From a virus, in IMG/VR virus record IMGVR_UViG_3300045988_169898: a stretch of DNA of 53,299 nucleotides; one strand, given 5' to 3'. Position numbers and translations under genes: made by a program. Below are positions 12,767 through 49,091 of this stretch, piece by piece. The notes under the pieces are model-generated. The model made no database searches and was not told the DNA's origin. It saw nothing but the letters and a program-made list of their open reading frames with translations. Positions within the stretch are counted from its first letter, which is position 1. The number at the start of each line of letters is the position of its first letter.

Positions 12767-12824
12767 AACGGCTGCAAAACGGGTGATGTCCGAAACTCGC
12801 CTAAAAACATCATAGGAGGCAATT

Positions 12825-13574: not shown

Positions 13575-13586
13575 AGGAGATACAAA

Positions 13587-13949
13587 ATGTTTAAAGCAAG
13601 TTTTAAGACTGCCTACTTACAGAGAGAAGTTCCTATGACTGTTGCAGTCGTCGGAGATAAACCTCTTGTAGTAGGCGAAATGGTAACTCTTACAGCAGCT
13701 TCTGGAGCCATTCCTGCTTCGATTAAATCGGCAGCTACGGTTGCAGCAGCAACTCACATCATTGCACAATCGGATATGACTATGGAATACGGACACGTTC
13801 CCGTTGAAAATAGGGATTACAAGTATAGCGATGAAGTAGCAGCAACTATTGCGGCGGCTGGACCCGTAGCAGCAAGCACTCCTACTAAAAAAGTTGCGTT
13901 ATTTGCAATCACTGACAAAGACGATTTGATTGTTAAAACGGTAGCATAG
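13587..13949 (+). CDS. Small Ala-rich head protein (decoration/cement-like candidate)
   Basis: 120 aa with an AAGGAG RBS, sitting between scaffold and capsid. The pattern VGEMVTLTAASGAIPAS...THIIAQSD resembles DUF2190-type decoration proteins. This is a weak, pattern-only call. Confidence 0.4.
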   Translation: MFKASFKTAYLQREVPMTVAVVGDKPLVVGEMVTLTAASGAIPASIKSAATVAAATHIIAQSDMTMEYGHVPVENRDYKYSDEVAATIAAAGPVAASTPTKKVALFAITDKDDLIVKTVA

Positions 13950-13962
13950 GAGGTAAACATAA

Positions 13963-15171: not shown

Positions 15172-15184
15172 CTAAATTAAATCA

Positions 15185-15219
15185 ACTTACTGCTACATAT
15201 CTTCTGTGTAGCAGTAAGT
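15185..15219 (+). terminator. Strong hairpin after the capsid gene (terminator/attenuator)
   Basis: ACTTACTGCTACA (15185-15197) pairs perfectly with TGTAGCAGTAAGT (15207-15219) around a 9-nt loop. Only a weak T-rich tail (ATTAT) follows. Confidence 0.6.
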
Positions 15220-15224
15220 ATTAT

Positions 15225-15265
15225 CACAATAATGGTATTAGCCGGTTCGACTCCGGCAATTGTGG
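15225..15265 (+). ncRNA. tRNA-like acceptor/T-arm minihelix (not a full tRNA)
   Basis: The canonical T-arm GCCGG-TTCGACT-CCGGC (15241-15257) is flanked by CACAATA (15225-15231) and AATTGTG (15258-15264), which pair at 6 of 7 positions. A 9-nt linker replaces the D and anticodon arms. The 3' end abuts the GGAGG RBS of the 15274 gene. Confidence 0.4.
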
Positions 15266-15273
15266 AGGTAAAT

Positions 15274-15879
15274 ATGGCGTACACCTGGGGATACATTAAA
15301 GATGTAAGTTTATCAAAGTTAGATTTAGACGAAAACGAAGCGACTGTGCAAAATTTGCTCAGTCGATTTCCATTTTATGCAAATGAAGTAATTACACAAG
15401 TATGTTCTTCGATAAAGCCTAAATATACATTTGAAAACTTTGTAATCGACAAAACAAACGTCGGGATTAAGCAAACAATGCCCGACGATTTTGTAAGTTT
15501 CGGGGACGATGTTTGCTATATGTTGGAAGAGGTTCGTGAACGTAACGGTGAAACAAGACTTATTAAAGTACCTATTCACGATGACGACTATGAGTATTTA
15601 GGTTACAATCAAGTAGTATTTAAGCATCCTGGAAATTATTTTATTTCATACAATGCAAGATGGTATACATTTGACAAGAGTTTGTCTGACGACGAATTGA
15701 TAGATGTTCCGGACGATATTCTTGATAGTATACCGTCATACATTGCAAGTCAATGTTACAAAATTGACGACGAGTATAAAGCATCTGTATTTAGAAACGA
15801 ATACGAAATAATGCTTTCAAGAATAGACAATAGTAACTTTAGGAATACTAAAACTATTAAGATTGAAGGAGACTGGTAA
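15274..15879 (+). CDS. Hypothetical virion protein (head-tail joining candidate)
   Basis: The ATG at 15274 has GGAGG 6 nt upstream, whereas the ORF-track start at 15232 has no RBS and would read through the T-arm-like element. A TAATG overlap couples it to the next ORF. Confidence 0.55.
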   Translation: MAYTWGYIKDVSLSKLDLDENEATVQNLLSRFPFYANEVITQVCSSIKPKYTFENFVIDKTNVGIKQTMPDDFVSFGDDVCYMLEEVRERNGETRLIKVPIHDDDYEYLGYNQVVFKHPGNYFISYNARWYTFDKSLSDDELIDVPDDILDSIPSYIASQCYKIDDEYKASVFRNEYEIMLSRIDNSNFRNTKTIKIEGDW

Positions 15880-24100: not shown

Positions 24101-27100
24101 TATCTTGTCAAGGAAATACTGAACAATGAGATAGATGCTGCTACTGCTGCCTATTTGTCAATAGATGACGTAATATCTAACCCATCATTGTTGTCGGAGA
24201 AAATGTTAGCCGACATACAGATGACCTATGGAGATGTAAATCAAACTTCTGCATTCTTGTATTTGAGAGAGTACTTTATAAACAAATTCAAAACCACAAC
24301 CGTCGTAGTATTGTCGGATGGTACATATGGATTTGCAGATATTCGTCCGATGAAGTCAATGCTTAAAACTGAGAACTTTAGCATTGACAAAAATACAAAG
24401 ATTAAGGATATTATCAAAGACGATTACTTGAAAGGTAGATTAAAAGACGTAAAAATTAAGCTGACTGACCGAGGGATTGTTGCAGAATACAATGCAGAAG
24501 AAAATACTATCTACATAAATGAATTTCGTGCAGCTAAGAAAGGTCCATATTTGACTTTTGCAGTACTTCACGAGTTCCAACACGCAATCCAAGTAGAAAA
24601 CGGTATGAACTTGGGTATGAATGTAAACTGGATAAATTCGGTTGCTAAAACTACCAAAGCAGCTATAATTGCAGACGTTAGAAAGCATCGTCCTGAACTG
24701 TTTACTGATGTAGCCAAAGGCAGCAAAGACGAGGCAAACATTGTAAACAACTTTGTATACTATTCGTCAGGAGAAAGTACTGCTTATGGTATTGACGCAA
24801 GTCAACTTGTAAACTATTATCCTACTGTGGTAAATGCTGACAAAGGCATTAAGATTACATTCCCTTGGGGCAAAACTTATAACATTAGTTCAAATGTTCC
24901 TGTATCAATAAAGTTAAGAAACTTGTACAATAAAGTATTTACTTTGTTGAACGAGTCTAACTATGAAAAATACTTTAATGCAATAAAAGATACTACTGAT
25001 ATTACTCCTTTTTCAAGCCAAGTAAAATCGCTTGAAATATATCGAAACTTATTGGATAGTGTAAAAGGAATTAACGAGTATATAAGTGTTGGTTTAGGAA
25101 CTGTTCAAGATGTTTCTGAAATTAAACAGCAATTACTCAATAGCATAACTCCCGACGTTAAAAATCAAATGCTTAAAATGATGTATTTCAAATTAGGAAT
25201 GACCAGTATAAGCTTTGATGAATTTTTGCAAATGGATATTCCTTTTGTAAGGGTTCAAAACAATATTACATCTAAACCAGATGCATTTTTGTCGGCAAGT
25301 GTTACGATGGATGCAAACTTGACATTAGACAAATGCTTAGATTTTATAATGAAAACTGACATAGTTAAAGGTTGGAATAATGAACAGGTAACTCCTACCG
25401 ATAAATTAACTATTGTAGTTGGAACTATAAAACCTGCAGATTGCATAGGCTTTTTAGGCACCAAACTTGACGAGGTACTTCTTCCGGTGGACGTAGTAAA
25501 TAAATCTAAAAAATACACCATAGATATTAACGACTATGTTCCTACTGGAAATCCTGAACCTGTCTATGAATTTGTAGAAACAATAGACAAAGTTTTCGGT
25601 GACATAATAAGATTGTATTCTACATTTTTCAGTAGATTTGATATTAAAGACGATAGAGCACTTACTAATGCATACTTTACAGGGTATATTCGTGAATTAG
25701 GAACTGCCAGATACCGTGAGATTATGCAATTATACCGTTATACACAGAAATTGGAAGATACTCACGGAAAATTAGATGTAAAGGACTCTGAACAGCTTAG
25801 AAACGCCAGAACAAAATTTTATGAACTTATTACGTCAGATAAAGGATACAAACTTGCAACTTACAAAATAATAAGATATTTACTAAGTGTTTCTAATGTT
25901 CCTGATGTGGAGTTATCAGAAATAAAAATACCTGTGGTAAGAGTGCAAAAAAATAACTTCGTAGACGAAAGACTTCCTTACGTTTCTTGTAGCTTGTTTT
26001 TAGGTGGCGATATAGATAACATAAGCATTCTTACTGATGTTATGCAAGAAGAGGATGCCAACTATGTTTTCTCTCACGTAAAGGTAAAAGATATTGTAGG
26101 TTTTGTATCAAATGACCTTCGAGAAGTACTAGTAAACAGCAGTGCATTTTCTTCCGATGATACCATAATCAAACATCTAAAAGCAAACAGAACTTTTGAA
26201 CGAAATGTTTTTGAAGAAGGTGCAATTATATCCGAATACTTTCATACCTATAGTGAGCTTGGTCCTTCCGATAGTATGTCAATCAAACAACCTGGCGATA
26301 TTGAAACCAAACGTTATGTCACACAAAAAGAAGGAAAAGACACAAACCTTGAGAAGTATGGTTATACCGCTAAGTACAAAAGAACTCAGATGGATACCAA
26401 ACTTAAAAACTTCATCATAAATGCAAACGAAGACATTGCATCAGAGCTCTGGAATAAAGTAAAGTCTGGCAAGATAACCACATCTGACGTGATGGATTAT
26501 TTGAGAGATGCCGACAAGATAGACGACAAAACATTCAAACTGATAAACGATTCGTTTTTCAAAAATAGCAAGATAAAAACATTTGAAGAACTTAAAGCCA
26601 AAATTGCTGAGTCGTCGAAATATTATGCTATGAGGGCTGTATTAAAATCTGCAGGCTTCGGTGAGGCTTTACTTACAAACGCAAATCCTGAGTTATTTAA
26701 CGGAGTACTCGAAATAATAAACAAAGATGAGAAACTTAAAAAACTTTTTGACGAGATAGACAGCAGGTATTATACTTACAGACAGCAAGGTCTTGACATA
26801 AGTGAAAAGTATTTAAGAAAACTTTGGATGGAGTATTTCGATGGCACCGTGGCCGCAGGTGGCTATATTGCAGCAATAGCAAAAATTGCAGCGATTTCCA
26901 AATGGAAGGTAACAGGTGAAGGTTCAACCATATCTACTCGCTCTCTTGATGATACTGTAGGCAAAGATATGGCTCTTGAAGAAGTATTGGAAGACGTTTC
27001 TGCAAAAGATGCATTTAGTTATATCTTGAACAACGGTGACAGAAGTGATAAGATAGACGACATAATTAAGGCGGTTACACCTAAGATTATCAAGAAGTTA

Positions 27101-30100
27101 AGGGAAATGGGTCCTTTGAAAGCTGAAAAATATTTGCAACAAAAGCGTGAACAGCTTGAGGAAATGAGTGACCGAGACTTTATAAAGTCGTACAAAAAAT
27201 ATGTTGAAGGTCAAAGCGAGGAAGAGATAAACAAAATGTTCCTTAAAACTATTATTGTAGAAACAGGAGCAATAGATATTTCCAAGTTAAGCGACCAACA
27301 ACTTGACCAACTTGAAATCACCGCAAATACTATCTCTAAAAAGGTTGACAGACCTAACACAGCCGTTGTAAATAACATTAAGTCTCTGGTTAGAACTATA
27401 AAAGCAAATCTTAGCAAGAAAGATACCACTCGTTTCTTAAAAGACAATGGCGACATTTTTGACAACAACCTTGATGTAAAGAAAGATTTGTATCAAACGG
27501 TAGATGACAAAGGAAGAATTAGGTTAAAAGATGCTTCGGAACTTTTAGAGCTGGAAAACAGAGTTAGACAACTTAGTAAGAGTGTTCGAGCCAACGACTA
27601 TTCGTCCGACCAATCGTTGAAATTTAGGAAGAAGATGGACCGAGAGTTGGAAAAACTCCGTATAGAAAATGAACATCTTGCAGAAAAGTTAGGAAAAGGT
27701 AAAACACAGGTACAAGCAGTAACTTATGAAATTGCGGACGATGTAATTACAATAGATACTAAAAAGGAAATACCTTCTGCATTAAAGAGAATACTTGAAA
27801 GTAACTTTAGTAAACCTGCAAAGTCTACTACTCAATATTTAACAGAGCAAGACCAAATGCACGTTCAAAGTAACTTTAAGAAGTTTGTTTCGGAAAATGT
27901 GGAATATTTGATTTCCTTAACACAGGCTGATGTTGACCAAATCATTGACTTCTACTTAACAAGCGAGATTATTCCGTCTACAAACAAAGCAAGACAATAT
28001 TCTGCAATTCAAGTTTATTTGATGACTTACATTATTAGTAATGCAAATAGCGGTAGATTTTTGCTTACTGATACACAACGAAGCGAATTGACAACAAGAC
28101 TTGAGTCCATCATATCAATGTCTGCAGCTAACTTGTCAAACTGGAAAGCAGCTATGAAACTTCTTAAACCCGAAGAAACTTTAATTCAGTCAGCTGCCAA
28201 AGCTACTGGTATAGAGTTTGCCGTAAGTGATGTTCAGGCTCTTGTAGAGGCAACTAACTCAGGAGACATAGAAAGGATACAAGCTGCCAAAACTGCAATG
28301 TATGAGAATGCATTAAGGTCTTACAAAGGAATAAAACGGTCATTCTTTGATAGATTGTTGAAATTTGAACGAATGGCTATGTTGTCTGGTCCCGGCACCT
28401 GGGTAAGGAACCAAGTATCTAACTTGATGGTTGTTGCAGGAAACAAAGCCGCAGAATATGTATCAGGTCCCATTGTAAAAATGCTTGACAAATTGTTCCC
28501 GAAGAAGTTTAAGCATAGAGATAACCAATACAAACTTGCAGGTACAAAAGTTACCTCGGAAGTTCAGACGTTTATCAAGAGGGAAATTATTGACAGTAAG
28601 ATACTTGAATTAGTTCGAGATGGATTTAGCAAGTATGATACAAGGAAATATAAACCAAACGAGGTAAGCAGTGAGCAATCATTAGCAGACCTTATTCAAA
28701 ACTCAATTCGTTCACAAATTATGAAGGACACTTACAGTAATTCAAAAGTTGTAAATGAAACGTATAAGTTTTTGTTTAAGATGCTGAGTGATAACAAATA
28801 TATTGACCGAGCCGCAGTTAAGTACCTCGGAAAGATGCTTACCGAAGATAATGTAAACCTTAATGAAGGACTTAGTACTGATGTGTTAAATCATATTGCA
28901 GATGCATATGTTATGGCAGCTCAAGACTTTATGCACACGACTAACTTCTTTAATGATATAGAAACTAAGTTAAGAGAACGACTCGGCGATAAAGCATTTT
29001 TCGTTTACAAACAATTCTTGCCTTTTGCAGCGGCCTCTTGGAACTGGTTTGTTGCAGGCTTAAAATACACACCTGTCGGTTTAGCACAAAGTATATATCA
29101 ATATGCTAAGTTAGAAAATACAATCGAAAAGATTGAAAAGCGAAAACAAAAAGGTGAACAAGTAGTATCAAGTAGATTTGCAGAATATATTGCAAAAAGA
29201 AACATAGGTAAAGGTGTAATAGGAACAATAGGTTGTGCTATAGGAATTGCACTTGCCGCATTTGGAGTTGCCGGCATTGACGAAGAAGACGGAAAGTATA
29301 AACTTCGTGTTGGCGATGTGTATGTAGATATTAGCGATATATTTAGTACACAAGGTATATTCGTCGGTATTGCAGCATTCAGTTCTATTAAGAGCGGCGA
29401 CATATGGTCAGCAATGGGAAATGTACTCGACACTATGTTTTTGGATAGTACATTTACCGACATGTTTAATTCGTTCCGATATAGTGAGACGTTCGGTGAC
29501 TGGTTAAGGGACCAACCGTTCAGTATATTAAGTATGTTTATACCTAATATGTTGAAGGTATTAACATCTACTACTTACGGCCACAAGGTTCAATATAGCA
29601 AAGGTATACTTGGAAAACTTGAACGAATTGCAGCTCAATCAGTTCCCGGTATGGCATATGCATTGCCTAAACAATATGACCCATACACAGGCGAGTATCA
29701 AATACAATACAAGGTGTGGTTCTTAACAAAACTTGTAGACAAACTTTCTCCGCTCGACATATATGCTTACAATATTAGTGAACAAGAAAAGATTGCTATG
29801 AGTTTGGGACTTAAGAAAGGACCGTTAACTGGAAGATACGAAATCAATGGAGAAAAAATTAACCTTAACTCCAAAGAACTTTCGGAAGCAAACAAGTTCT
29901 ATGGCGAATTAAATAGTAGGGACTTAAAAGAATTTACTTCTGGTACTAAAAAATACAGCGTATATGACGATAAAAAAGGCAAATATGTTGAACTAACTTA
30001 TAGTAAAATGACGGACAAACAAAAAGCTGCTGTCATCGACCGAATAATGTCAAACAACAGCAGCAAAGTTAAAATTTATATACTGACTAAACACGGTTAT

Positions 30101-30202
30101 TATAAATATTATGCAAGTCAAGAAGAATACAAAGAACTTAAAAAGTTAGGTATCAATGTACAAAAGGCTAATGGTAACAAGAAAGGCTTTCTTAACAGTT
30201 AG
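21116..30202 (+). CDS. Giant virion-associated protein (3028 aa) with one zincin HExxH motif and a C-terminal TM segment; function unknown
   Basis: Uninterrupted 9,087-nt ORF with an AAGGAG RBS. FAVLHEFQHAIQ (HEFQH at nt 24569-24583) follows a beta-strand TIYINEF. There is a Gly/Ala-rich hydrophobic N-terminal region and a hydrophobic GVIGTIGCAIGIALAAFGVAG at about nt 29210-29277. It is the last gene of the structural arm. Confidence 0.85.
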   Translation: MSTLKLTPSYLNSYEAAHKILSNNPWFQESDWLSMARSGELDQYITVLANTDKITDKDKFYSDYNYAYADDQTRVAALYNELLADRSNVDEPRKRLALDSSGNVILDAKGKPTYESFKASDYDYYKSVIKNRNDEYYQEYLIEQEKERKNSMNGFVKFLGDTASIGTELAYGLANQIDNLTNSIAAIGDGITAYFKDEDVADAIVDTNASDTWRWFEQLGVQDWIVDFERRYTNVRDLDGNYSNTGKYLGGICSTLGQMLPSMVGGKVVGSAAQKAGAAAKTVNTLSQISSTLIFYQGITAGNIRDMYKQFAAEKASVPSGAILANASIKSALQWAVEIGLAKISGGSTIDNVVFGRSIRTSAGSTLAKSAGKRLLSDFVTEGLEEVFQDTSDWLVDKAFSVLINENFGKVTEISYQSLMDSFIIGGLASFAGSALNIVTTKKVATGQVKTNKKGDTKLDKEGNVKAEKLGKLASWEYGLDMQSFMKNYVELQEQAKGFLKRYDKDSTEAKKYAAAITEMYAAYRMLSSIYGEIGETRFKNANQVLSEITNLVNNGKFTNDGAYNIGQELMNSLTDLRKNSLEKTLAALEKAKITQLADVIERDSDLTQLNIDEDTKKSIQQLFDGDDNVKKVILTKDGANIAVVDDSLFVPINYAKNADGSTLYETVAEQTLVEAISKGKFKGDVLNLVLETFKKVTGRNDASMEEAIYNLVFNDSFFNIMLSTANKDMYSLLSSLISIEDNVVSNKLRDKIYKKKIATVVESMTQSLYDYCINQPYADYRLDVFTKTQIDKIAAIRWCRNLYARVIDNTSYKHLTDNDWNVLNNRVNSLPVSQQQKDKILTALKSNNKDTRASAMNKIALVYKGIFTTNYDGTVYMPDTNVANRTFNSWLQSIGLTIETLTSLEIDENTKKTISELYGAFTTENLIKFRQSQFMQYCNNSFIFRYDKQGKLGIYEHETNKQVGFSEYRTNAEAVLAGNDFDKRTTLERSYKKNYLVKEILNNEIDAATAAYLSIDDVISNPSLLSEKMLADIQMTYGDVNQTSAFLYLREYFINKFKTTTVVVLSDGTYGFADIRPMKSMLKTENFSIDKNTKIKDIIKDDYLKGRLKDVKIKLTDRGIVAEYNAEENTIYINEFRAAKKGPYLTFAVLHEFQHAIQVENGMNLGMNVNWINSVAKTTKAAIIADVRKHRPELFTDVAKGSKDEANIVNNFVYYSSGESTAYGIDASQLVNYYPTVVNADKGIKITFPWGKTYNISSNVPVSIKLRNLYNKVFTLLNESNYEKYFNAIKDTTDITPFSSQVKSLEIYRNLLDSVKGINEYISVGLGTVQDVSEIKQQLLNSITPDVKNQMLKMMYFKLGMTSISFDEFLQMDIPFVRVQNNITSKPDAFLSASVTMDANLTLDKCLDFIMKTDIVKGWNNEQVTPTDKLTIVVGTIKPADCIGFLGTKLDEVLLPVDVVNKSKKYTIDINDYVPTGNPEPVYEFVETIDKVFGDIIRLYSTFFSRFDIKDDRALTNAYFTGYIRELGTARYREIMQLYRYTQKLEDTHGKLDVKDSEQLRNARTKFYELITSDKGYKLATYKIIRYLLSVSNVPDVELSEIKIPVVRVQKNNFVDERLPYVSCSLFLGGDIDNISILTDVMQEEDANYVFSHVKVKDIVGFVSNDLREVLVNSSAFSSDDTIIKHLKANRTFERNVFEEGAIISEYFHTYSELGPSDSMSIKQPGDIETKRYVTQKEGKDTNLEKYGYTAKYKRTQMDTKLKNFIINANEDIASELWNKVKSGKITTSDVMDYLRDADKIDDKTFKLINDSFFKNSKIKTFEELKAKIAESSKYYAMRAVLKSAGFGEALLTNANPELFNGVLEIINKDEKLKKLFDEIDSRYYTYRQQGLDISEKYLRKLWMEYFDGTVAAGGYIAAIAKIAAISKWKVTGEGSTISTRSLDDTVGKDMALEEVLEDVSAKDAFSYILNNGDRSDKIDDIIKAVTPKIIKKLREMGPLKAEKYLQQKREQLEEMSDRDFIKSYKKYVEGQSEEEINKMFLKTIIVETGAIDISKLSDQQLDQLEITANTISKKVDRPNTAVVNNIKSLVRTIKANLSKKDTTRFLKDNGDIFDNNLDVKKDLYQTVDDKGRIRLKDASELLELENRVRQLSKSVRANDYSSDQSLKFRKKMDRELEKLRIENEHLAEKLGKGKTQVQAVTYEIADDVITIDTKKEIPSALKRILESNFSKPAKSTTQYLTEQDQMHVQSNFKKFVSENVEYLISLTQADVDQIIDFYLTSEIIPSTNKARQYSAIQVYLMTYIISNANSGRFLLTDTQRSELTTRLESIISMSAANLSNWKAAMKLLKPEETLIQSAAKATGIEFAVSDVQALVEATNSGDIERIQAAKTAMYENALRSYKGIKRSFFDRLLKFERMAMLSGPGTWVRNQVSNLMVVAGNKAAEYVSGPIVKMLDKLFPKKFKHRDNQYKLAGTKVTSEVQTFIKREIIDSKILELVRDGFSKYDTRKYKPNEVSSEQSLADLIQNSIRSQIMKDTYSNSKVVNETYKFLFKMLSDNKYIDRAAVKYLGKMLTEDNVNLNEGLSTDVLNHIADAYVMAAQDFMHTTNFFNDIETKLRERLGDKAFFVYKQFLPFAAASWNWFVAGLKYTPVGLAQSIYQYAKLENTIEKIEKRKQKGEQVVSSRFAEYIAKRNIGKGVIGTIGCAIGIALAAFGVAGIDEEDGKYKLRVGDVYVDISDIFSTQGIFVGIAAFSSIKSGDIWSAMGNVLDTMFLDSTFTDMFNSFRYSETFGDWLRDQPFSILSMFIPNMLKVLTSTTYGHKVQYSKGILGKLERIAAQSVPGMAYALPKQYDPYTGEYQIQYKVWFLTKLVDKLSPLDIYAYNISEQEKIAMSLGLKKGPLTGRYEINGEKINLNSKELSEANKFYGELNSRDLKEFTSGTKKYSVYDDKKGKYVELTYSKMTDKQKAAVIDRIMSNNSSKVKIYILTKHGYYKYYASQEEYKELKKLGINVQKANGNKKGFLNS

Positions 30203-35795: not shown

Positions 35796-36152
35796 TTAAT
35801 TTTCCTCATCACCTGTAAATTTTAGCATAAGTGCCTCTACAATGTCCGGATCGTCTATCGAAAACCAGAGTCCAGATGCCTTTTGGATTTGTTTTCCTAC
35901 AATTATTTGAGCATCGGAGCTGTCGTAAACTTTCTTGTTTCTTTTTACCTCTATTCCTACGAATAATCCTACTTTAGCATTTTCTCCGAACAACTCTACA
36001 ATCTTTTTCAATGTAACAGGTACACAAGCGGTTAAATCAGGTCTACCTTTTTCTGTATACATACTTTGTGCATTCTTGTATACATAACCACCGTACTTTC
36101 TAATCGTTCGTATCATTTTTGCTTGGACATCACTCTCTAACTTGTTTGCCAT
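35796..36152 (-). CDS. VRR-NUC family nuclease
   Basis: The PD-(D/E)xK signature is GRPDLTACVP ... FVGIEVKRNK. I start at MANKLE (ATG 36152, GGAGG 7 nt upstream). The ORF-track start at 36206 would run into the tRNA-like element. Confidence 0.75.
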   Translation of the reverse strand: MANKLESDVQAKMIRTIRKYGGYVYKNAQSMYTEKGRPDLTACVPVTLKKIVELFGENAKVGLFVGIEVKRNKKVYDSSDAQIIVGKQIQKASGLWFSIDDPDIVEALMLKFTGDEEN

Positions 36153-36175
36153 AAATACCTCCATAATAATCATTG

Positions 36176-36243
36176 TGCGAAAAACCGGATTTGAACCGGT
36201 ATACAAGGTTTTACATTAAACTATTTTCACATAATATTTCGAC
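36176..36243 (-). ncRNA. Degenerate tRNA-like element (68 nt; possible pseudo-tRNA, anticodon position UGU)
   Basis: Reading the minus strand: acceptor GTCGAAA/TTTTCGC pairs at 6 of 7 including one G-U. The T-arm ACCGG-TTCAAAT-CCGGT is canonical. The anticodon stem AGTTT/AACCT has one mismatch, and the loop AATGTAA lacks U33. The D-arm is reduced to about 11 nt with no GG. It lies 23 nt upstream of the VRR-NUC ATG. Confidence 0.35.
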
Positions 36244-37610: not shown

Positions 37611-38075
37611 TCATATTATAAATTTTATTACTTCGTTAAATTTTTGTTTCTTCCAATTATAAGTAAATACCTCTGTCTTAGTGAACTTGTCTAACATTGT
37701 AAGTATTAACTTATAAGCATCTTTTATTTTTGTAGCAGTTTCTTTGTCAACAATATTGTTTTCGCCTCGTTTCATACTATCTTCAAAAGCAGAGTCAGTA
37801 TCACAAAGTATTATTTTGCAATATTTTAACAAATAGCACATCTGTTCTAATGTTATGTTCCCTGCCTTCTCATCGTCAACAGCCCTATAAACAAGGTCAG
37901 TTATAAAACTTCGGTCAATTATTGCATCACCTTTGTTTATTAACTTAATCCATTGTTCGTATGGATTTGTTTCAGAACGACTTACCGTAGGCTCTACATT
38001 AAAACCGAACTCTTTTAACTGTTTACAAAGTGTCGTTTTTCCTGAGCCATCGGCTCCTTCTAATAGTATCAACAT
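37611..38075 (-). CDS. P-loop deoxynucleoside/dNMP kinase (Tmk/dNK fold)
   Basis: 154 aa. The P-loop is LLEGADGSGKTT, and IIDRSFITDLVY resembles the (E/D)RS motif of dNK/Tmk kinases. Substrate is unknown. Confidence 0.65.
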   Translation of the reverse strand: MLILLEGADGSGKTTLCKQLKEFGFNVEPTVSRSETNPYEQWIKLINKGDAIIDRSFITDLVYRAVDDEKAGNITLEQMCYLLKYCKIILCDTDSAFEDSMKRGENNIVDKETATKIKDAYKLILTMLDKFTKTEVFTYNWKKQKFNEVIKFII

Positions 38076-38076
38076 A

Positions 38077-39012
38077 TTATTTACCTGTAGAACCTAACTT
38101 TCCTGAGGTCCTCTTTCCTTGTTTTTTAACAACTACGTTGTCTATGTTACTTCTATTGAAAGGAACGGTTACCACCTGACAAAATGCTTCACCTTTTTTG
38201 TATTCTATAATGCTATTACTTACATTATGAACTATTGCCTCTACCTCTCCGTTATAATTGGGGTCTATCGGACACATAGCCAAAATTATTCCTTTCGATG
38301 CCGCAGAAGTTCTACTGCAAAGTAAAGCCATTTCACCTTCTTTGGGAGTTACTTTAACTTTAAGACTGAAACTTTGTGTAGACATTGGCATAAATACTAC
38401 ATCTTCTTGTAAACAAATATCTATTCCTGCATCGTCTTCATAACCTTTAACAAATATGTTTTTGTTATGTTCTTCCTTTTCAATAGGAATATTGTATTTT
38501 TTACAAAAACTTTCATATTCTTCGTCAAACTTACGTTTTGTAGATTTATAAACCCGTGTAGAGAAGTCGCCACTCGGAAAACGAAGTTCGTATTCTATGA
38601 ATTTATAACAAGCCATCAGGTCTGCAAGATGAACTACTTCTGATGTAATTGCATCTTTTTTACCTATGATATGACTTTCAAACAGTTCCTCTTCGTCGTC
38701 TATTTGTTTACGAAGTCCGTTTACTTTATCTTTTGTGACCGAAAGAATGTCGCCACGAAGTAACTCTAAGGAGTCGTGAAGCATAGCAAGTCTTATCATA
38801 TACTCAAAGTCTATTTTGTTCTTCAACTCTTCGTTCTTTACAATAAAGAAATCATAAAGTTTGATTGAACAAGCACAAACAAGGTGAGTATGTTCTGCAA
38901 GATTTTCCTTTTCACGAAGGTCCCTTCCGTTCCATCGGTTTAGACATCTCATTTGTAATGCATTATCTGCAATATCGAAGTTTTCTAAAAACTCTTTTAC
39001 ATCTTCTTGCAT
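38077..39012 (-). CDS. Fusion protein: YfbR-type HD 5'-deoxynucleotidase (N-terminal) + trimeric dUTPase (C-terminal)
   Basis: The N-terminal half has LNRWNGRDLREKENLAEH, AMLHDSLELLRGDI and ADLMACYKFIEYEL. These parallel E. coli YfbR NRW..ENVSEH, YHDASEVLTGDL and ADALCAYLKCLEEL. The C-terminal half has dUTPase motifs 1-5: DAGIDI, CSRTSAA, PIDPNYNGEV, GEAFCQVV and GKRTSGKLGSTG. Confidence 0.8.
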   Translation of the reverse strand: MQEDVKEFLENFDIADNALQMRCLNRWNGRDLREKENLAEHTHLVCACSIKLYDFFIVKNEELKNKIDFEYMIRLAMLHDSLELLRGDILSVTKDKVNGLRKQIDDEEELFESHIIGKKDAITSEVVHLADLMACYKFIEYELRFPSGDFSTRVYKSTKRKFDEEYESFCKKYNIPIEKEEHNKNIFVKGYEDDAGIDICLQEDVVFMPMSTQSFSLKVKVTPKEGEMALLCSRTSAASKGIILAMCPIDPNYNGEVEAIVHNVSNSIIEYKKGEAFCQVVTVPFNRSNIDNVVVKKQGKRTSGKLGSTGK

Positions 39013-39971
39013 TATTTGTTCTCCTCGTAATAATCCATTGTTTTAATCATATTTTTAGCAACATCAGGTTGACTGCCATCATATGTTGTATTTAATTTGG
39101 CACCTGATTTCCATTGTAAAATCAATGCACGTTCCTTTTCGGTCAGGTAATTTGAGCCTGTGTCATACATTCTTTCAAGTTCCATTTTCCAACCAGACTT
39201 TCTCCAATCGTTTAATGCAGGAAGTTCAGGCGTATATTCCGACCGAGCCGTAAAGTCACTATTGAAAAGTCTTTCTCTTGTGTAGAAACCATCATTTATA
39301 CATTTTGCCTCAGAGAATATCCAATTATACAACTTCCAACTATTCACATCGGTTACGCTGTCCATCAGTTTTCTTACTTCTCGATACATCAGTCTGTAAA
39401 CATAATTGCATTCGTCACAGAAGTTGCTCGATGTTCTACTGAAACAAGACCTTACAAAGTCCTGAGGAGTATAACTTGCTGTCAAAGATATTACCTGAGG
39501 ATGCAGTCCTACATATCTTGCCTCTATCGTAGGAATTTCCTTTTCACAAGCAATGATGTATGCCTCTTCGAGTAACTTTTGAGCCTCTTTAAGTTTATCC
39601 ATTATCTCATCGTCTTTATAAATAGACATCGGAATATTGAACTCTTGTGTAAGAGGAAATACTCCTGTGCTACTACTTGCAAAGATTGCACTGTCTCTTG
39701 TCAATTGTGCAAGACAAATTCTCGAAATGTTTTCTATACGAAATTGAAGTCTAATGCCTTGCAATGCAAATTTAGGCAATGTTTTACCGTCGATAATCTT
39801 TTGGATAAGTTTTTTACAATCATCTGAGTTTTCGTCATATGTTTCTTGCAATGGAATATAGTAATCGTGTGATAAACGACCGAACTCATATACACTTTTT
39901 GCAAAATCATTTCCCGGAGATTGAATTAAGGTGACTTTAATGTTTTCATATCCGTTATTAAATTTAGCCAT
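39012..39971 (-). CDS. ThyX-fold protein with a non-canonical signature (divergent flavin-dependent thymidylate-synthase-like)
   Basis: 319 aa. LQFRIENISRICLAQLTRDSAIFASSSTG aligns by eye to the ThyX core f.I.giSR....QL.RHR..S....S.RY, but RHR is replaced by TRD and the terminal RY by VF. SRTSSNFCDECNYVYR sits where ThyX has R....AQ.EIR. Confidence 0.55.
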   Translation of the reverse strand: MAKFNNGYENIKVTLIQSPGNDFAKSVYEFGRLSHDYYIPLQETYDENSDDCKKLIQKIIDGKTLPKFALQGIRLQFRIENISRICLAQLTRDSAIFASSSTGVFPLTQEFNIPMSIYKDDEIMDKLKEAQKLLEEAYIIACEKEIPTIEARYVGLHPQVISLTASYTPQDFVRSCFSRTSSNFCDECNYVYRLMYREVRKLMDSVTDVNSWKLYNWIFSEAKCINDGFYTRERLFNSDFTARSEYTPELPALNDWRKSGWKMELERMYDTGSNYLTEKERALILQWKSGAKLNTTYDGSQPDVAKNMIKTMDYYEENK

Positions 39972-40552
39972 TATTCAATGCCCTCCCATTTGTTCTCGAT
40001 TTTTATCGTTTCATAATCTTGTCCCATCAAAAGTTTTGAAAACTCTTTCAATGTTGTGCAAGTACCTGTGAATGCAAGCATTACATTTGTGTGTGACAAG
40101 AAGGTGGTATCGTCCAAGCCTAACAACACAATTTTCTTTTTCAACGAGTATGCCATTCCGATTTCCCAAGCCGTTCCAACGTCTTTTTCATCTACGAATG
40201 CGACTACCATATCACAATCTTGTATGTTCTCGACGTTCTTTGTAAATGCATCGTAAGGTTTATCATTTACTTGACATCTCGGAAAGAAAACTTCATACTC
40301 ACTGTAAGGAGTAGATGCTGCTGCGATTACGGTTGCCGAATTGTAAAACGAGTTAGACTTCTCGTTGAACCAAGGTCCTGCAAAATATATCTTTTTTGTT
40401 TTCTTACGTTGTTCGCAAATCGTTTCCTTAGGAAGGACACTTAAAGCTGCCATTTGTTCTTTTGCAATGAGTTCTCTGAGTTGTTTTACATCGAGCGAAT
40501 TGTATGTGCTCACACCTCTCGAAGTGCCTGTTTTACCTGCCTCAGTTGTCAT
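39971..40552 (-). CDS. Nucleoside 2-deoxyribosyltransferase family protein
   Basis: KKIYFAGPWFNEKSNSFYN and CDMVVAFVDEKDVGTAWEIGMAYSLKKKIVLL mirror Lactobacillus NDT TIYFGAGWFTDRQNKAYK and NDIMLGVYIPDEEDVGLGMELGYALSQGKYVLL. The catalytic Glu is conserved in WEIG. There is a roughly 50-aa N-terminal extension. Confidence 0.75.
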   Translation of the reverse strand: MTTEAGKTGTSRGVSTYNSLDVKQLRELIAKEQMAALSVLPKETICEQRKKTKKIYFAGPWFNEKSNSFYNSATVIAAASTPYSEYEVFFPRCQVNDKPYDAFTKNVENIQDCDMVVAFVDEKDVGTAWEIGMAYSLKKKIVLLGLDDTTFLSHTNVMLAFTGTCTTLKEFSKLLMGQDYETIKIENKWEGIE

Positions 40553-40805
40553 TTTCTTTTACCTCATCATATTGCGGGTCGTTCATATACTTATTGATAA
40601 GGTCTGTAACGTCACTCGCAGATTTTATAACTCCGTCTTTTAACAAGCATTTAATTACAACGGTCATAGCGAAAGCAGTTTCTGCTACATTCGAACCTTT
40701 GGCCAGGTCTACGATGTAAGTATTTTTGCTTTCATTAAATGCGACAGCCATCAAAATGACAGAGTCGTCAGTGTTAGTTGATACATTTTTTTGTTCTTCG
40801 TTCAT
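40542..40805 (-). CDS. Hypothetical 87-aa protein, first gene of the nucleotide-cassette operon
   Basis: GAGAGG RBS. It overlaps the NDT-like start by 11 nt. No motif recognised. Confidence 0.55.
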   Translation of the reverse strand: MNEEQKNVSTNTDDSVILMAVAFNESKNTYIVDLAKGSNVAETAFAMTVVIKCLLKDGVIKSASDVTDLINKYMNDPQYDEVKENDN

Positions 40806-40999: not shown

Positions 41000-42316
41000 T
41001 TAATATTGGCTTGTTTCCTCTTTGTCATCTCGTACTCGTTTCAATCTCGGAAATCTTAACGAGTATCTATTTGTTCCTCTGTTTGCTGACTCTTGACTTA
41101 AAGAAAAATAGCTTATCTCTACAATTTTGCCACAAATTTTCTCAGGATGTAATGCCCAATCTTCTCGTTGTTCATCACTTATGCCTGTTCCTACCGAACA
41201 AGTCACAACTTTTCCATCAAAGTTTGCTTGACAATAGATATTTCCTAACACATTGTAGTATTTACCAGTTCCATACGACCAGTCAAATACTTTCATATCC
41301 ATTGTGTATACCTTTTTAAGTTTAAGCAGTTGGTCGGTTCTCTTGTTCAAGTAATTTGAATTTGCAAGGTTAATCATAAGTCCTTCGGCTCCGGTATCTG
41401 TTACTTTATTTAACAGGCTCCAAATATCAAGTTTCAGTTCGTCAGGCGTTTTATAGTGTGCAAGAACTGGAACGATGCGAATGTCTTCGCCAATATCAAG
41501 CCTATTGAATGTTTCAAGTTCCGTACGACGGTCGATGTAAGAACTGTTAGTATCTACAATGTCAAAAATATTGTATACTAACTTCTTGTCGGTTGTATGT
41601 CTATTTATCATACCGGACGTAAAGTTGAAGTCAGTATCACTGTTCTTAAAGTTACCGTCACCTCGTCCAAACACCATATCTTCCAACTTTTTAGAATTGC
41701 TTGTTTGTAAAGGACTTAGCACTTCGCCATCATAAACATATCGTTTATCCATACAACTCATATCGAAGTTTACATGCATTGCTTTTCCATTCCTCGATGT
41801 GAAGTTCCATTTTTCGCCATCCCAGCTAGCAATACATCTATTGCCATCAAGTTTTTCAGTTACGAAATAACCGTCTTTTGAAAACTTTATGTCTCCTTCA
41901 AACTTTTTAGCAAGCATCGGTGATATTATGCTCTTTTCTACAAGGCTTTCACCTATTCCTAACCTCAACGTTCTATTTACAATAGGTTCAAAGAAGTCTG
42001 CCCAGTTGGTTGTCAATGATACATACGACATAATATTCTCTGTACTCAAATCTCTGTCCTTTGCAGGTGTAAGTAAAAATTGAAGTACTGATTTTACAGT
42101 CATTGCAGAGATTGTAGAGTTATACAAAAAAGGATATCGTTTATAAGTATAACCGAACTTATGTTTTCCTGCAAGACATTCAATTATGAAGTCGAAATCT
42201 TCCTTACACCTTGGGTCGATGTCTTTAACTATTTGTTCCTTCTCAATCCTTGAATTGGTATCTTGCAACAAATCAAATATGTAACTTAAATAGTCTACTC
42301 TTTCTTGTAATGTCAT
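41000..42316 (-). CDS. ATP-dependent DNA ligase
   Basis: 438 aa. Motif I is TEKLDGNR (KxDG), motif III YVYDGEVL, motif IV AEGLMIN and motif V QLLKLKK. Confidence 0.85.
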   Translation of the reverse strand: MTLQERVDYLSYIFDLLQDTNSRIEKEQIVKDIDPRCKEDFDFIIECLAGKHKFGYTYKRYPFLYNSTISAMTVKSVLQFLLTPAKDRDLSTENIMSYVSLTTNWADFFEPIVNRTLRLGIGESLVEKSIISPMLAKKFEGDIKFSKDGYFVTEKLDGNRCIASWDGEKWNFTSRNGKAMHVNFDMSCMDKRYVYDGEVLSPLQTSNSKKLEDMVFGRGDGNFKNSDTDFNFTSGMINRHTTDKKLVYNIFDIVDTNSSYIDRRTELETFNRLDIGEDIRIVPVLAHYKTPDELKLDIWSLLNKVTDTGAEGLMINLANSNYLNKRTDQLLKLKKVYTMDMKVFDWSYGTGKYYNVLGNIYCQANFDGKVVTCSVGTGISDEQREDWALHPEKICGKIVEISYFSLSQESANRGTNRYSLRFPRLKRVRDDKEETSQY

Positions 42317-42534
42317 TTGTTTCTCCTTTTAAGGTTCCTAATCTCTCTGTTTATGTACCAAATGGCCTTTTGAAGGTCCTCTATTTCCTTTGATGCATCT
42401 TTTTTGCCAGCTCTACAAATATATTTTATTGCATTGCCTCTGTGATAACTCAATTGTTTATCCTCTATGAACTCTATTACTTCAATTTTTCCATCAGTAT
42501 AATGAGACGGATGTTTTACGTTATCGTCTATCAT
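42313..42534 (-). CDS. DUF3310-family small protein
   Basis: 73 aa with HPSHYTDGKIEVIEFI ... GNAIKYICRAGKK ... EDLQKAIWY, the characteristic DUF3310 pattern. ATGA overlap with the ligase gene. Confidence 0.65.
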   Translation of the reverse strand: MIDDNVKHPSHYTDGKIEVIEFIEDKQLSYHRGNAIKYICRAGKKDASKEIEDLQKAIWYINREIRNLKRRNK

Positions 42535-48203: not shown

Positions 48204-48666
48204 CGCTAAGGTACTCCTCTAGTTTGTTAAGTAACTCGTCTATGACAATGAGTTCTCGTTCGACCTTCTTGTCATCTTTTTTAACTATGCCCACACGTTT
48301 CAGTGAGCTTCTTGCTGTGTCTATGTGTTTGAGTAGCCGTTTGAGTTCCTTGTCCTCGTATCTGTTGACCGGTTTCCAACCAAGGTCCTCGTAGACACCG
48401 AAGTCAACGAACCAGTACAATATCCGACGTATGGATAGCTTGGGACTGTTGACCGGGTAGCTCTGCAGCATGTCTATGTAGTCAGGCTGGTTGATAGTTA
48501 TGTTGTATCGTCCGGCTCCCTCACGGTTTTTGCAAGGAGGTCTGTCTATTAGCTCGATGTTTCCATCAGCACCCTCTTGCAAGATGCGGTTAACCACCTC
48601 CGATAGGTCGCCGAACAAGCATAATGTGTCGACCACATATTTATGTAGATATACACTCTGTATCAT
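48184..48666 (-). CDS. Hypothetical protein (160 aa)
   Basis: Same-strand coupled array (ATGA overlap at 48663-48666). No motif recognised. Confidence 0.5.
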   Translation of the reverse strand: MIQSVYLHKYVVDTLCLFGDLSEVVNRILQEGADGNIELIDRPPCKNREGAGRYNITINQPDYIDMLQSYPVNSPKLSIRRILYWFVDFGVYEDLGWKPVNRYEDKELKRLLKHIDTARSSLKRVGIVKKDDKKVERELIVIDELLNKLEEYLSDDREHN

Positions 48667-49091
48667 TGTGAGTTCCTCCTATAGCACTCAGGCCCGAGGC
48701 CTCTCTGTATACTCTCTGGAGTAGTGAGCTTCCTGCCACAGCGACCACATCTTCCCTCGTGGTACACATGCAGGTTGTTAGGTATGTTGTACAGGTTATC
48801 AAAGAAGAAGCTTATTGCTCGGAGTGATGCCGGCCAGGCCATCTGCATCTTGTCTTTCCAAGGCTTAGCAGGATGGAAGTAACAAGTATCACTGTAATAG
48901 CAACCTATGTACTGGTAGTCGTCCTCGTTGTCTGGACCACTGAGTAGGTGAATGAAGTACAAGTTTTCCTGAGTTTTAGATTGTTTCACCTTGTAAGTAA
49001 AATGTACCCCTGTGTTGCCAGACTGCAAGGTGACTGTAGCGTTGCCTGCAAGAGTGTAGTCGACGATGGCGTCTGATTTAAGCTCGTTCAT
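48663..49091 (-). CDS. Protein with a C-terminal CxxCGR..LT.PES...G.GP.C zinc-ribbon (DUF6011-like)
   Basis: 142 aa ending with GRCGRCGRKLTTPESIQRGLGPECYRR. Confidence 0.5.
   Translation of the reverse strand: MNELKSDAIVDYTLAGNATVTLQSGNTGVHFTYKVKQSKTQENLYFIHLLSGPDNEDDYQYIGCYYSDTCYFHPAKPWKDKMQMAWPASLRAISFFFDNLYNIPNNLHVYHEGRCGRCGRKLTTPESIQRGLGPECYRRNSQ

Follow-up and report, generated by a model that had tools for sequence, protein, structure and literature searches.

The four-gene deoxynucleotide cassette of this phage of gut origin is, on sequence comparison, the local form of a conserved module that recurs in many uncultured phages. Its organising gene is ThyXL, a ThyX-fold protein and the most constant member of the module, rather than the nucleoside 2-deoxyribosyltransferase (NDT). 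The initial annotation had placed the ThyX-like enzyme merely alongside a salvage loop, a view that does not hold since it is the enzyme around which the conserved core is built. We tentatively read the cassette as a system for pre-replicative replacement of thymidine nucleotides by a C5-modified deoxyuridine nucleotide, which is the most likely explanation, while ordinary dTTP supply with pool recycling is a near-equal rival. If replacement is correct the module may supply the thymine substitute for the DNA of these phages; otherwise it is an odd route to ordinary thymidine nucleotides.

The four adjacent, tightly packed minus-strand genes were confirmed, with each ORF found at the coordinates in Table 1, within the window (the whole stretch of 53,299 nucleotides that was analysed, which is AT-rich at 38% GC). 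The NDT/ThyXL and ThyXL/HD::dUTPase junctions both read TAATG, with one base common to the stop and start codons, and the HD::dUTPase/kinase junction reads TAA-T-ATG, so that each stop codon overlaps or abuts the next start, which makes translational coupling plausible. A small upstream ORF overlaps the NDT start, and seven related loci of the ~53-kb type (L002, L003, L004, L006, L007, L009, L010) have it in the corresponding place; Pfam and PHROG searches gave no match for it, and its membership of the cassette is uncertain.

Table 1. Cassette genes, domains of the fusion protein and adjoining small ORF
Feature	Coordinates	Strand	Length or extent	Remark
NDT	39971-40552	-	193 aa	
ThyXL, ThyX-fold protein	39012-39971	-	319 aa	
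HD::dUTPase fusion	38077-39012	-	311 aa	
HD domain, YfbR-type 5'-deoxynucleotidase	38503-39012	-	residues 1 to ~170	
Trimeric dUTPase domain	38077-38487	-	residues ~176-311 + stop codon	
Short Tmk-like P-loop kinase	37611-38075	-	154 aa	
Small ORF	40542-40805	-	87 aa	overlaps NDT start by 11 nt

ThyXL matches PF02511 in Pfam at 2.1e-6 (28.1 bits, cutoff 24.8) and canonical viral ThyX in hhalign at 99.8%. The best Foldseek matches of its AF2 model (pLDDT 89.7) are the PolB UMP/dUMP methylase and ThyX (about 1e-8), and the fold is common to ThyXL and the ThyX family including PolB, the C5-methylase of polyoxin biosynthesis (target-normalised TM about 0.7). In a comparison of 60 ThyXL with 9 canonical ThyX sequences, every member of either group has Q75, R78, R147, R174 and E182, and S88 is retained in 59/60 ThyXL, the nucleotide-phosphate ligands and R174 thus being shared. 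In contrast R90 and H53, each present in 9/9 canonical sequences and the targets of the ThyX mutant structures 5ios, 4gtf and 4kar, occur in 0/60 ThyXL, N163 falls from 9/9 to 7/60, and Pro or Val stands in place of Y91. The window protein keeps Q89, R92, S101, R152, R179 and E187 in its own numbering, and shows the substitutions R90 to G, Y91 to V, H53 to T or K and H79-R80 to D-S. The RHR triplet is indeed replaced in this protein (R92-D93-S94), as had been noticed at the outset, whereas the family-wide losses lie elsewhere: the His is retained in 16/60 ThyXL and the second Arg in 44/60, and the alignment suggests that the defining differences are R90, Y91, H53 and N163 rather than RHR. ThyXL further differs from ThyX by a conserved C-terminal extension of ~100 aa, its phage-only occurrence and its almost constant company of NDT, nucleotidase and kinase. 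At E<=1e-3 only 56 representative clusters were found in 1.84 billion proteins, tblastn gave no match in 50,697 GenBank phage records, and 185,579 species genomes yielded only 11 matches, all of them MAG contigs of the binned-phage-genome kind. ThyXL is accordingly a separate clade, seen on phage contigs only.

The partner genes accompany ThyXL at nearly all of its loci. NDT and 5'-deoxynucleotidase genes lie within 6 kb of ThyXL in 62 of 66 loci from diverse phages, joined by the short kinase in 58 of the 66, whereas NDT or HD genes were found at none of 80 canonical and none of 10 short viral ThyX loci. The linkage still holds at ThyXL identities as low as 24% and over contig sizes of 5 to 330 kb; one locus (L001) is without any partner gene. 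In one lineage a HAD NT5C-like 5'(3')-deoxynucleotidase occupies the position of the HD enzyme, which points to the dephosphorylating function itself as the conserved trait, and keeping an enzyme that destroys precursors is easiest to understand where one nucleotide has to be eliminated. Neighbours in some lineages include a glycosyltransferase resembling TET-associated enzymes, a GT8-like enzyme and a full transporter/kinase/LicC/LicD set, all of them candidates for decorating a hydroxylated base. Flavin-reductase-like, nitroreductase or aldo-keto-reductase genes adjoin ThyXL-type genes in some lineages.

The classes initially assigned to the remaining products are borne out. The NDT matches PF05014 (9e-16, over cutoff) and phrog_7995 (2.7e-20), contains both of the peptides originally singled out (IYFAGPWF and DVGTAWEIGMAY) and has a lineage-specific N-terminal extension (residues 1 to ~50). 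Its best solved relatives are the true NDTs 6evs, 2a0k and 1f8x, with DNPH1/Rcl much weaker, and none of the 55 ThyXL-linked homologues deviates at Y56, D124, N156 or the catalytic Glu, E130. The Asp of the DVG...E segment corresponds to NDT Asp92 and not to the Ser of the dNMP hydrolases, and the product probably belongs to the true nucleoside 2-deoxyribosyltransferase class. The fusion protein joins a YfbR-like HD domain (PF12917, 3e-14; phrog_7076, 4.5e-14), with OxsA and YfbR as closest solved relatives and R26, H41, H79, D80, E83, D88 and D131 invariant in 43 homologues, to a complete trimeric dUTPase (PF00692, 7e-18). The latter aligns end to end with the EIAV, FIV and poxvirus enzymes and has all five motifs, GKLGSTG replacing GGFGSTG (Leu for Phe) in motif 5; it also gives a weak DCD/dCTP deaminase match.

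The kinase has only sub-threshold Tmk matches in Pfam but matches phrog_761 'thymidylate kinase' at 2e-14; its P-loop reads LEGADGSGKTT and is accompanied by a DRS motif, with G7, D9, G12, K13, R55 and R103 invariant or nearly so in 56 homologues. The family profile scores best against SPbeta YorR (2axp, 1.4e-15), the closest solved relative, then thymidylate kinases (1e-9), and more weakly against deoxynucleoside kinases including deoxyguanosine kinases (3e-6). Given these scores, the Tmk-type P-loop Asp (EGxDGxGKTT) and the DR motif, a dNMP is the probable substrate rather than the nucleoside released by the NDT. A loop with nucleoside re-phosphorylation, as first proposed, is therefore not the best reading, while the comparative linkage does support the accompanying idea of a role beyond plain salvage. 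SPbeta, a temperate phage with canonical bases, has YorR beside the 5'(3')-deoxyribonucleotidase YorS, so a kinase-nucleotidase pair alone is not diagnostic; the annotation of 8.5 kb around SPbeta yorR lists neither a ThyX-like gene nor an NDT.

In the proposed replacement pathway the dUTPase domain, its motifs intact, would convert dUTP to dUMP, to be bound by ThyXL through the retained phosphate ligands Q75, R78, S88 and R147 together with R174. ThyXL may then put a one-carbon (or other) group on C5 without the normal outcome, the most likely product being 5-hydroxymethyl-dUMP if the exocyclic-methylene intermediate of the flavin mechanism were trapped by water and not by hydride. The short Tmk-like kinase would phosphorylate this product, which the host Tmk may not accept. 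The HD phosphohydrolase, whose class is clearer than the specificity we infer for it, would dephosphorylate thymidine nucleotides to thymidine, from which the NDT, likewise firm in class and putative in specificity, would take off thymine and move the deoxyribose to another base so that dT could not be re-phosphorylated. With the HD domain fused to a pyrophosphatase of the dUTPase family, two consecutive dephosphorylation steps would be joined. Replacement is supported by the separate ThyXL clade with its altered active site, by the linkage, the HD/HAD swap and the nearby decorating enzymes, by retention of the catalytic residues of NDT, HD and kinase in all homologues, and by finding neither a second thymidylate synthase nor PurZ among the scanned window ORFs, which take in every ORF longer than 215 aa.

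Comparable enzyme sets occur in other phages, some of them with replaced bases. Bacillus hmU phages (SPO1, SP8, phi-e, SP5C) combine a pyrophosphatase for dUTP/dTTP and a 5'-nucleotidase for dTMP with a dUMP hydroxymethylase and a kinase for hmdUMP, a logical parts list equal to that of the cassette. Their C5 enzyme is a ThyA homologue and not ThyX-fold, and to our knowledge an NDT has no part in the pathway. In diaminopurine (dZ) phages, PurZ is found with DatZ and with MazZ or a dUTPase homologue; for these phages a 2025 preprint (10.1101/2025.10.22.683976) proposed the NDT, together with the YfbR-like HD protein DatZ and dUTPase homologues, as a dA-removing accessory, and one such NDT prefers dA. 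The initial remark of knowing no described phage DNA-modification route built around an NDT is overtaken by that proposal and by the SP-15 NDT near an atypical ThyX. The dZ phages and the cassette thus bring together YfbR-like HD, NDT and dUTPase-family proteins, with the same proposed logic of removing the canonical competitor nucleotide; the synthetic enzyme of the cassette is, however, a pyrimidine-type ThyX relative, so thymine and not adenine would be the replaced base. Further parallels supporting replacement come from SP-15, Listeria phage LIS04 and Geobacillus phage GR1, each with an atypical ThyX-family gene near NDT and HD phosphohydrolase genes. SP-15 has a YfbR-like 5'-nucleotidase, NDT and atypical ThyX (gp90/gp127/gp129/gp130 set), the NDT lying three genes from the ThyX; its thymine is partly replaced by 5-dihydroxypentyluracil, and gp130 was proposed as the hmdUMP synthase by its sequencers (SP-15 genome paper). 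The ThyX proteins of SP-15 and LIS04 fall outside the ThyXL family (hhalign 0.5% and 8.9%). That of GR1 is related (98.6%) but keeps RHR, and the GR1 gene set further includes a 145-aa Tmk-like kinase and an HD protein of YfbR type.

Restriction-site usage limits what the modification could be. Palindromes containing T are strongly avoided in the window (observed against expected: GATC 7 and 123, CATG 19 and 174, CTAG 13 and 87, TTTAAA 2 and 40, ATTAAT 0 and 19) and likewise in relatives, whereas GC-only palindromes are just mildly avoided. Such avoidance indicates that thymine positions give no restriction shield, which excludes a bulky protective modification and leaves either unmodified T or a small substituent as in 5hmU, a base that stops just some 8% of type II enzymes (PMC7653180).

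The solitary ThyXL of L001 counts against thymidine replacement, and so does this avoidance, which is typical for unmodified phages and fits the near-equal rival, to which we give a probability of about one third. ThyXL would then be a divergent but functional thymidylate synthase fed by the dUTPase, the Tmk-like kinase would yield dTDP, HD and NDT would recycle host-DNA deoxynucleotides (dNMP to dN to base swap) toward the needs of an AT-rich genome, and virion DNA would be canonical; the pool re-balancing already raised in the initial annotation is thus a live rival. dTMP is the simplest guess for a dUTPase, ThyX fold and Tmk-like kinase, together the textbook dTTP route, and ThyXL retains its nucleotide-binding residues and R174. 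The adjoining reductases fit the net reductive chemistry of dTMP synthesis better than a redox-neutral hydroxymethylation, and an HD domain that also hydrolysed dUMP would, fused to the dUTPase, starve ThyXL. Recycling is further consistent with the YorR-YorS pair of SPbeta, with the NDT, deoxyguanosine kinase and PnuC-like transporter in a salvage context in Enterococcus phage VPE25, and with the host-pool dependence implied by finding no ribonucleotide reductase among the scanned window ORFs. However, generic recycling leaves the linkage (62/66 against 0/90 viral ThyX loci) unexplained. The loss of R90, H53 and, in most ThyXL, N163, all invariant in the compared canonical ThyX, also counts against it, and dephosphorylating dNMPs brings little gain without a nucleoside kinase when the cassette kinase looks dNMP-type.

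The other explanations are improbable. A route centred on the NDT, in which HD supplies deoxynucleosides, the NDT attaches a non-canonical free base and phosphorylation by the kinase lets the resulting nucleoside enter DNA, draws on the complete true-transferase catalytic set with its conserved C-terminal residues, on HD products being NDT substrates and on the weaker deoxynucleoside kinase matches. We consider it unlikely given the Tmk-type features of the kinase and a window in which no enzyme making an unusual free base was found, and it leaves ThyXL without a role. Cytosine replacement, slightly less probable still, would have ThyXL convert dCMP to 5-methyl- or 5-hydroxymethyl-dCMP, the dUTPase-family domain act as a dCTPase and the kinase take the resulting dCMP derivative, in the manner of T4 or XP12. 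The missing R90 and Y91 might indicate a changed pyrimidine, dCTP-specific members exist among dUTPase-family enzymes (compare the weak DCD match), and one lineage has the TET-associated-like glycosyltransferase; but R174 is invariant, the dUTPase motifs are canonical, nucleotidase and NDT would be needless with dCMP as substrate rather than competitor, and the palindrome pattern does not specifically indicate protected cytosines. Least probable is that deoxyribose furnishes a C5 side chain like that of the SP-15 dihydroxypentyluracil, with the NDT donating deoxyribosyl as an alkyl chain to C5 of dUMP for processing by ThyXL and reductases. SP-15 has NDT, SDR reductase and atypical ThyX side by side, a 1978 report among the references of its genome paper has a title that speaks of ribose label into dihydroxypentyl uracil, and in some lineages ThyXL has aldo-keto reductase or other reductase genes as neighbours. 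Yet gp130 stands outside the ThyXL family and the scanned window ORFs include no reductase or sugar-handling gene. We know of no NDT chemistry that builds a C5 chain from deoxyribose, and the strong restriction-site avoidance speaks against a bulky group.

The four minus-strand ORFs of the cassette that the initial annotation had described are all found where it placed them, and Pfam, PHROGs and NCBIfam assign them to the classes it had proposed: a nucleoside 2-deoxyribosyltransferase (NDT, with the quoted peptides present), a ThyX-family protein, a fusion of a YfbR-like HD domain to a trimeric dUTPase (HD::dUTPase) and a Tmk-type P-loop kinase. The NDT/ThyX and ThyX/HD::dUTPase junctions are TAATG overlaps, and one base separates the HD::dUTPase stop from the kinase start. 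The 319-aa ThyX-family protein, which together with its phage-only homologues is termed ThyXL, scores 28.1 bits against PF02511 (gathering cutoff 24.8) and aligns with canonical viral ThyX across residues 11-200 at 99.8% probability in profile-profile comparison. Its AlphaFold model (AF2, 21 homologues; pLDDT 89.7) matches the UMP/dUMP methylase PolB and many ThyX structures in Foldseek at ~1e-8, with an extra C-terminal part in ThyXL.

Sixty ThyXL sequences were compared with 9 canonical viral ThyX and T. maritima ThyX in profile and MAFFT alignments (T. maritima numbering is used for conserved positions). The dUMP phosphate ligands and R174 are retained in ThyXL (Q75, R78, R147 and R174 in 60/60, S88 in 59/60), and E182, Q75, R78, R147 and R174 are invariant in ThyXL and canonical ThyX alike. 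In contrast, R90 and H53, invariant in the canonical set, are found in none of the 60 ThyXL sequences, N163 is kept in 7 and Y91 is replaced by P or V, where all four positions are invariant or nearly so in canonical enzymes. We take the lost residues to line the side of the pocket that faces the flavin, folate and pyrimidine edge in the T. maritima structures. This conservation pattern indicates that the nucleotide site has been kept and the substrate/cofactor side remodelled. The motif RHRx7S (R78-H79-R80...S88) is disrupted in the window protein, which has R92-D93-S94...S101; the reported replacement of RHR thus holds for the window, where the triplet reads RDS, but not family-wide, H79 being kept in 16/60 and R80 in 44/60. 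Short viral ThyX proteins (about 185-190 aa; eight loci, L066-L073) have TRSxH instead of RHR with the SxRY segment intact and NDT and HD genes absent nearby, so that RHR loss alone does not define the ThyXL clade.

ThyXL is a small and separate family. Only 56 representative clusters occur among 1.84 billion proteins, and a search of 185,579 species genomes gave 11 matches, all on MAG contigs that are assigned to Clostridia, Oscillospiraceae, Ruminococcus or Bacilli and resemble binned phage genomes. In public databases, homologues carry the automatic name thymidylate synthase. Most lie on metagenomic contigs of 53-56 kb, one of which (L002, from IMG/VR) is identical to the window across the ThyXL gene.

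An alignment-based scan of IMG/VR with ThyXL yielded 75 loci, in which the usual order is NDT and HD genes before ThyXL and a short Tmk-like kinase after it, with a trimeric dUTPase or a dimeric dUTPase/MazG-like gene nearby. This neighbourhood persists where ThyXL identity falls to 24%, on contigs that range from 5 to 330 kb. For linkage counts, HMMs built from the ThyXL neighbours were used in a second search, and control canonical-ThyX loci came from an alignment-based scan, a single canonical ThyX as query having given no matches. NDT and a 5'-deoxynucleotidase both lie within 6 kb in 62 of 66 ThyXL loci (58 of them with the kinase as well), against 0 of 90 control loci (80 canonical and 10 short viral ThyX), none of which carried the kinase in addition. 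The linkage is exclusive to ThyXL, and the co-occurrence survey proposed in the initial annotation gives comparative support to its view that the cassette goes beyond plain salvage. Partners missing at ThyXL loci are mostly explained by contig ends that cut the locus. In one lineage (L034, L053, L055; also L048, L051, L065) a HAD NT5C-like 5'(3')-deoxynucleotidase replaces HD at the same position, which indicates that it is deoxynucleotide dephosphorylation itself that is conserved. An FNR-like reductase is also present at three loci of the HAD lineage, and at two a GIY-YIG endonuclease is fused to the NDT.

The partner enzymes have intact catalytic residues. The NDT scores 58.5 bits against PF05014 (cutoff 28.8), and Y56, D124, E130 (the catalytic Glu of the DxGTxxExG segment) and N156 are invariant in 55/55 ThyXL-linked homologues. 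The solved structures that match it best are those of true nucleoside deoxyribosyltransferases, with DNPH1/Rcl dNMP hydrolases and CMP glycosidase far lower. A role as dNMP N-hydrolase (Rcl/DNPH1 or MilB type) was considered because such an enzyme would destroy dTMP directly; it is disfavoured by the weak DNPH1 matches and by the invariant D124 (DVGTAWE), which aligns with the 5'-OH-binding Asp of NDTs and not with the Ser of Rcl/DNPH1. Judging by the L. leichmannii NDT and Rcl structures, an Asp in the DxGT segment is the mark of nucleoside- rather than nucleotide-binding enzymes. The HD domain (53.5 bits against PF12917, cutoff 25.9) can be aligned with YfbR and OxsA over the NRW, EH, HD and GD segments, which hold the H...HD...D metal ligands and the R-W and E/D substrate residues, at positions invariant in 43 homologues, and its product should therefore be a deoxynucleoside, from a mono- or triphosphate. 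The PHROG label 'dATP triphosphohydrolase' is a family name only, and a PDB search with this domain returned no close match to DatZ.

The dUTPase domain (65.1 bits against PF00692, cutoff 22) matches retroviral and poxviral dUTPases over its whole length, and all five motifs are visible against 1duc and 3c3i, with the motif-5 Phe replaced by Leu. The kinase is more divergent, falling below the Tmk cutoffs (PF02223, 20.4 vs 27; TIGR00041, 29 vs 83), and at 154 aa vs about 200 for Tmk it is shorter than a protein with a full-length LID. It has the Tmk-type P-loop with Asp (EGxDGxGKT; LEGADGSGKTT in the window) and the DR motif (IIDRS), and D9, K13, R55 and R103 are conserved across 56 homologues; a single-sequence structure model reached a pLDDT of only 60. 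A profile built from 19 homologues has SPbeta YorR as its best match (1.4e-15), followed by thymidylate kinases (~1e-9) and then deoxyguanosine kinase (3e-6). This ranking lends no support to the loop first envisaged, in which the nucleosides formed by NDT are re-phosphorylated by the kinase.

The pattern as a whole is most simply explained by a pathway with two arms. In the synthesis arm dUTPase, ThyXL and the kinase would act in succession, and in the disposal arm a pyrophosphatase/HD step would yield a deoxynucleoside from which NDT would release the free base. This two-arm pattern follows the logic of base-replacement phages, and a thymidine-replacement pathway is therefore our favoured, though unproven, reading. 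The likeliest ThyXL product would be 5-hydroxymethyl-dUMP, because it requires only that water capture the exocyclic-methylene intermediate known from the flavin mechanism. The enzyme classes, the intact catalytic residues, the remodelled pocket and the exclusive linkage are established by the analysis, and the individual substrates, the ThyXL product and an unusual base in the DNA are inferred. Other replacement systems were rejected: a 2,6-diaminopurine (dZ) system since no PurZ (adenylosuccinate synthetase homologue) was found among the window ORFs scanned, and uracil-DNA of the PBS1 type since the dUTPase is intact. No ThyA-like ORF (ThyA-family dUMP hydroxymethylase) was found among the window ORFs of at least 250 aa, all of which were scanned. 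Nearly as likely as thymidine replacement is that ThyXL is a divergent thymidylate synthase, accompanied by pool recycling for an AT-rich genome. The closest solved relative of the kinase comes from SPbeta, a phage with ordinary bases, where it adjoins a 5'(3')-deoxyribonucleotidase; reductase genes that adjoin ThyXL-type genes would suit a reductive methylation; and no ribonucleotide reductase is present among the window ORFs scanned. Such an enzyme does not readily account for the exclusive linkage, nor for the loss from ThyXL of residues that canonical ThyX never loses.

Palindrome counts are indirect evidence and tell in part against thymidine replacement. T-containing palindromes are strongly depleted in the window (observed/expected: GATC 7/123, CATG 19/174, CTAG 13/87, TTTAAA 2/40, ATTAAT 0/19, ATCGAT 0/12) and GC-only palindromes are only mildly low, a pattern shared by close relatives. 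Such extreme depletion suggests that particular host restriction systems exert strong pressure. It follows that thymine positions give the window DNA no protection against restriction, and a bulky modification is thereby excluded for this phage. Plain thymine and 5-hydroxymethyluracil (5hmU) both agree with the counts, and these statistics cannot separate the two; 5hmU blocks only 8.3% of type II enzymes (PMC7653180). Five loci of the HAD lineage, when pooled (56 kb), show zero palindrome avoidance, unlike the other groups.

Similar gene sets occur in cultured phages. Geobacillus phage GR1 (locus L078, OK896991) carries in one region an NDT, thioredoxin, a YfbR-like HD protein, a 459-aa glycosyltransferase, a 145-aa Tmk-like kinase, RNase H, a nitroreductase and a 322-aa atypical ThyX that is related to ThyXL (98.6%). 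The literature searched contained no paper on GR1, which, being cultured, would be a convenient phage in which to test the hypothesis. In Listeria phage LIS04, an HD protein and an NDT are accompanied by a 371-aa ThyX with RSK instead of RHR. In Bacillus phage SP-15, 5-(4',5'-dihydroxypentyl)uracil makes up about half of the thymine, and the genome encodes a YfbR-like 5'-nucleotidase (gp90), an NDT (gp127), a reductase (gp129) and an atypical ThyX (gp130) that its sequencers guessed to be a hydroxymethyluridylate synthase. Membership of gp130 and the LIS04 ThyX in ThyXL was rejected by hhalign, and these systems are therefore analogies. The initial annotation was aware of no phage DNA-modification route built around NDT; such enzymes have since been proposed as accessories of dZ phages. 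According to a 2025 preprint (10.1101/2025.10.22.683976), NDT is found in these phages together with DatZ, an HD enzyme, and dUTPase homologues; one such NDT prefers dA, and its authors propose that it depletes dA.

Combining these strands, ThyXL might be the first ThyX-fold family to make a thymine substitute, as a flavin-dependent dUMP C5-hydroxymethylase or another C5 transferase, within a module that is a self-contained base-replacement kit. We put this forward tentatively, and consider it a little more doubtful than probable. The kit would comprise five activities (NTP pyrophosphatase, HD or HAD 5'-deoxynucleotidase, NDT, ThyXL and a short Tmk-like kinase) and occur widely among uncultured phages whose hosts are gut Clostridia and other anaerobes. 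Its HD-plus-NDT arm would serve generally to get rid of a canonical nucleotide, a device shared with diaminopurine phages, and the new base would be further decorated in some lineages, by glycosyltransferases or choline/LicD-type phosphotransfer. To our knowledge and in the papers searched, wherever experiments have established that a phage replaces a pyrimidine before replication, a ThyA-family enzyme is used, and the literature searched held neither a characterised ThyX-fold hydroxymethylase nor this module. With a ThyX-fold version, modified DNA bases would have originated a second time, independently, and the flavin-relay mechanism could be tested in a natural case where it is diverted from reduction. 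Non-canonical DNA would then be present in a sizeable group of gut phages that are now automatically annotated merely as thymidylate synthase carriers, with consequences for virome sequencing bias, phage-host defence studies and enzyme tools. Even with dTMP as product, the strict linkage of a ThyX clade to nucleotidase, NDT and minimal kinase is an undescribed nucleotide-metabolism module, for which the cassette genes provide a marker set.

Some lineages carry extra genes beside the module, including a glycosyltransferase weakly like TET-associated GTs, a GT8-like protein, an aldo-keto reductase (adjoining ThyXL at four loci, L013-L015 and L020), an FNR-like reductase and a transporter/choline-kinase-like/LicC-like/LicD set. 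The last lies between the ThyXL-kinase pair and dUTPase-PolA in one phage lineage (L020, L022, L025, L026, L028-L033, L042, L043, L045) and consists of a BCCT-like membrane transporter (by eye), a choline-kinase-like protein, a LicC-like nucleotidyltransferase and a LicD-family transferase (PF04991, 6e-35). These four genes would form a complete phospho-alcohol transfer pathway, which might decorate DNA or the cell surface. On the jumbo-size contig L015, two different short Tmk-like kinases adjoin each other.

Coordinates of the cassette and of other features in the window and in compared loci
Feature	Sequence	Coordinates	Strand
Head genes, GC 40-44%	window	1-16000	
3028-aa ORF	window	21116-30202	plus
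Sign change of coding strand and GC skew	window	30.2-30.5 kb	
Replication block	window	from ~30.5 kb	minus
TTG-started ORF	window	35796-36206	
Rfam tRNA match	window	36176-36230	minus
NDT, ThyXL, HD::dUTPase, kinase cassette	window	37611-40552	minus
Other small ORFs, most without family match	window	42.3-53 kb	
DUF3310 protein (7e-19)	window	42313-42534	minus
DUF6011 protein (2e-15)	window	48663-49091	minus
LicD set	lineage loci	about 7.4-11.7 kb	
LicD set	L026	7458-11655	
Two short Tmk-like kinases	L015	3855-4891	
NDT to atypical ThyX region	GR1 (L078)	23.9-29.7 kb	

At ~53 kb, the window has the appearance of a complete phage genome. Its plus strand encodes the large terminase subunit, nearest to terminases of Staphylococcus and Bacillus phages, together with the portal, tail genes and the 3028-aa ORF, and the minus-strand replication block comprises PolA, a primase-helicase, a helicase, a Sak4-like annealase, an ATP-dependent ligase and an exonuclease. 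No close cultured relatives were found by blastn (region) or tblastn (ThyXL, HD domain) against 50,697 GenBank phage records. The giant ORF occupies 17% of the genome and has no Pfam match, and the adjoining ORFs of 1169 and 1221 aa are essentially unannotated; coding strand and GC skew change sign between this ORF and PolA. GC content outside the head-gene region is 33-37%. Two small early-region proteins carry DUF domains. The Rfam tRNA match (40.8 bits, only 55 nt, no ARAGORN call) may represent a tRNA that is truncated or unusual. This match and the 5' end of the TTG-started ORF overlap; the first residues of the ORF (GSNP) resemble a translated tRNA T-arm, and its true start probably lies further downstream.
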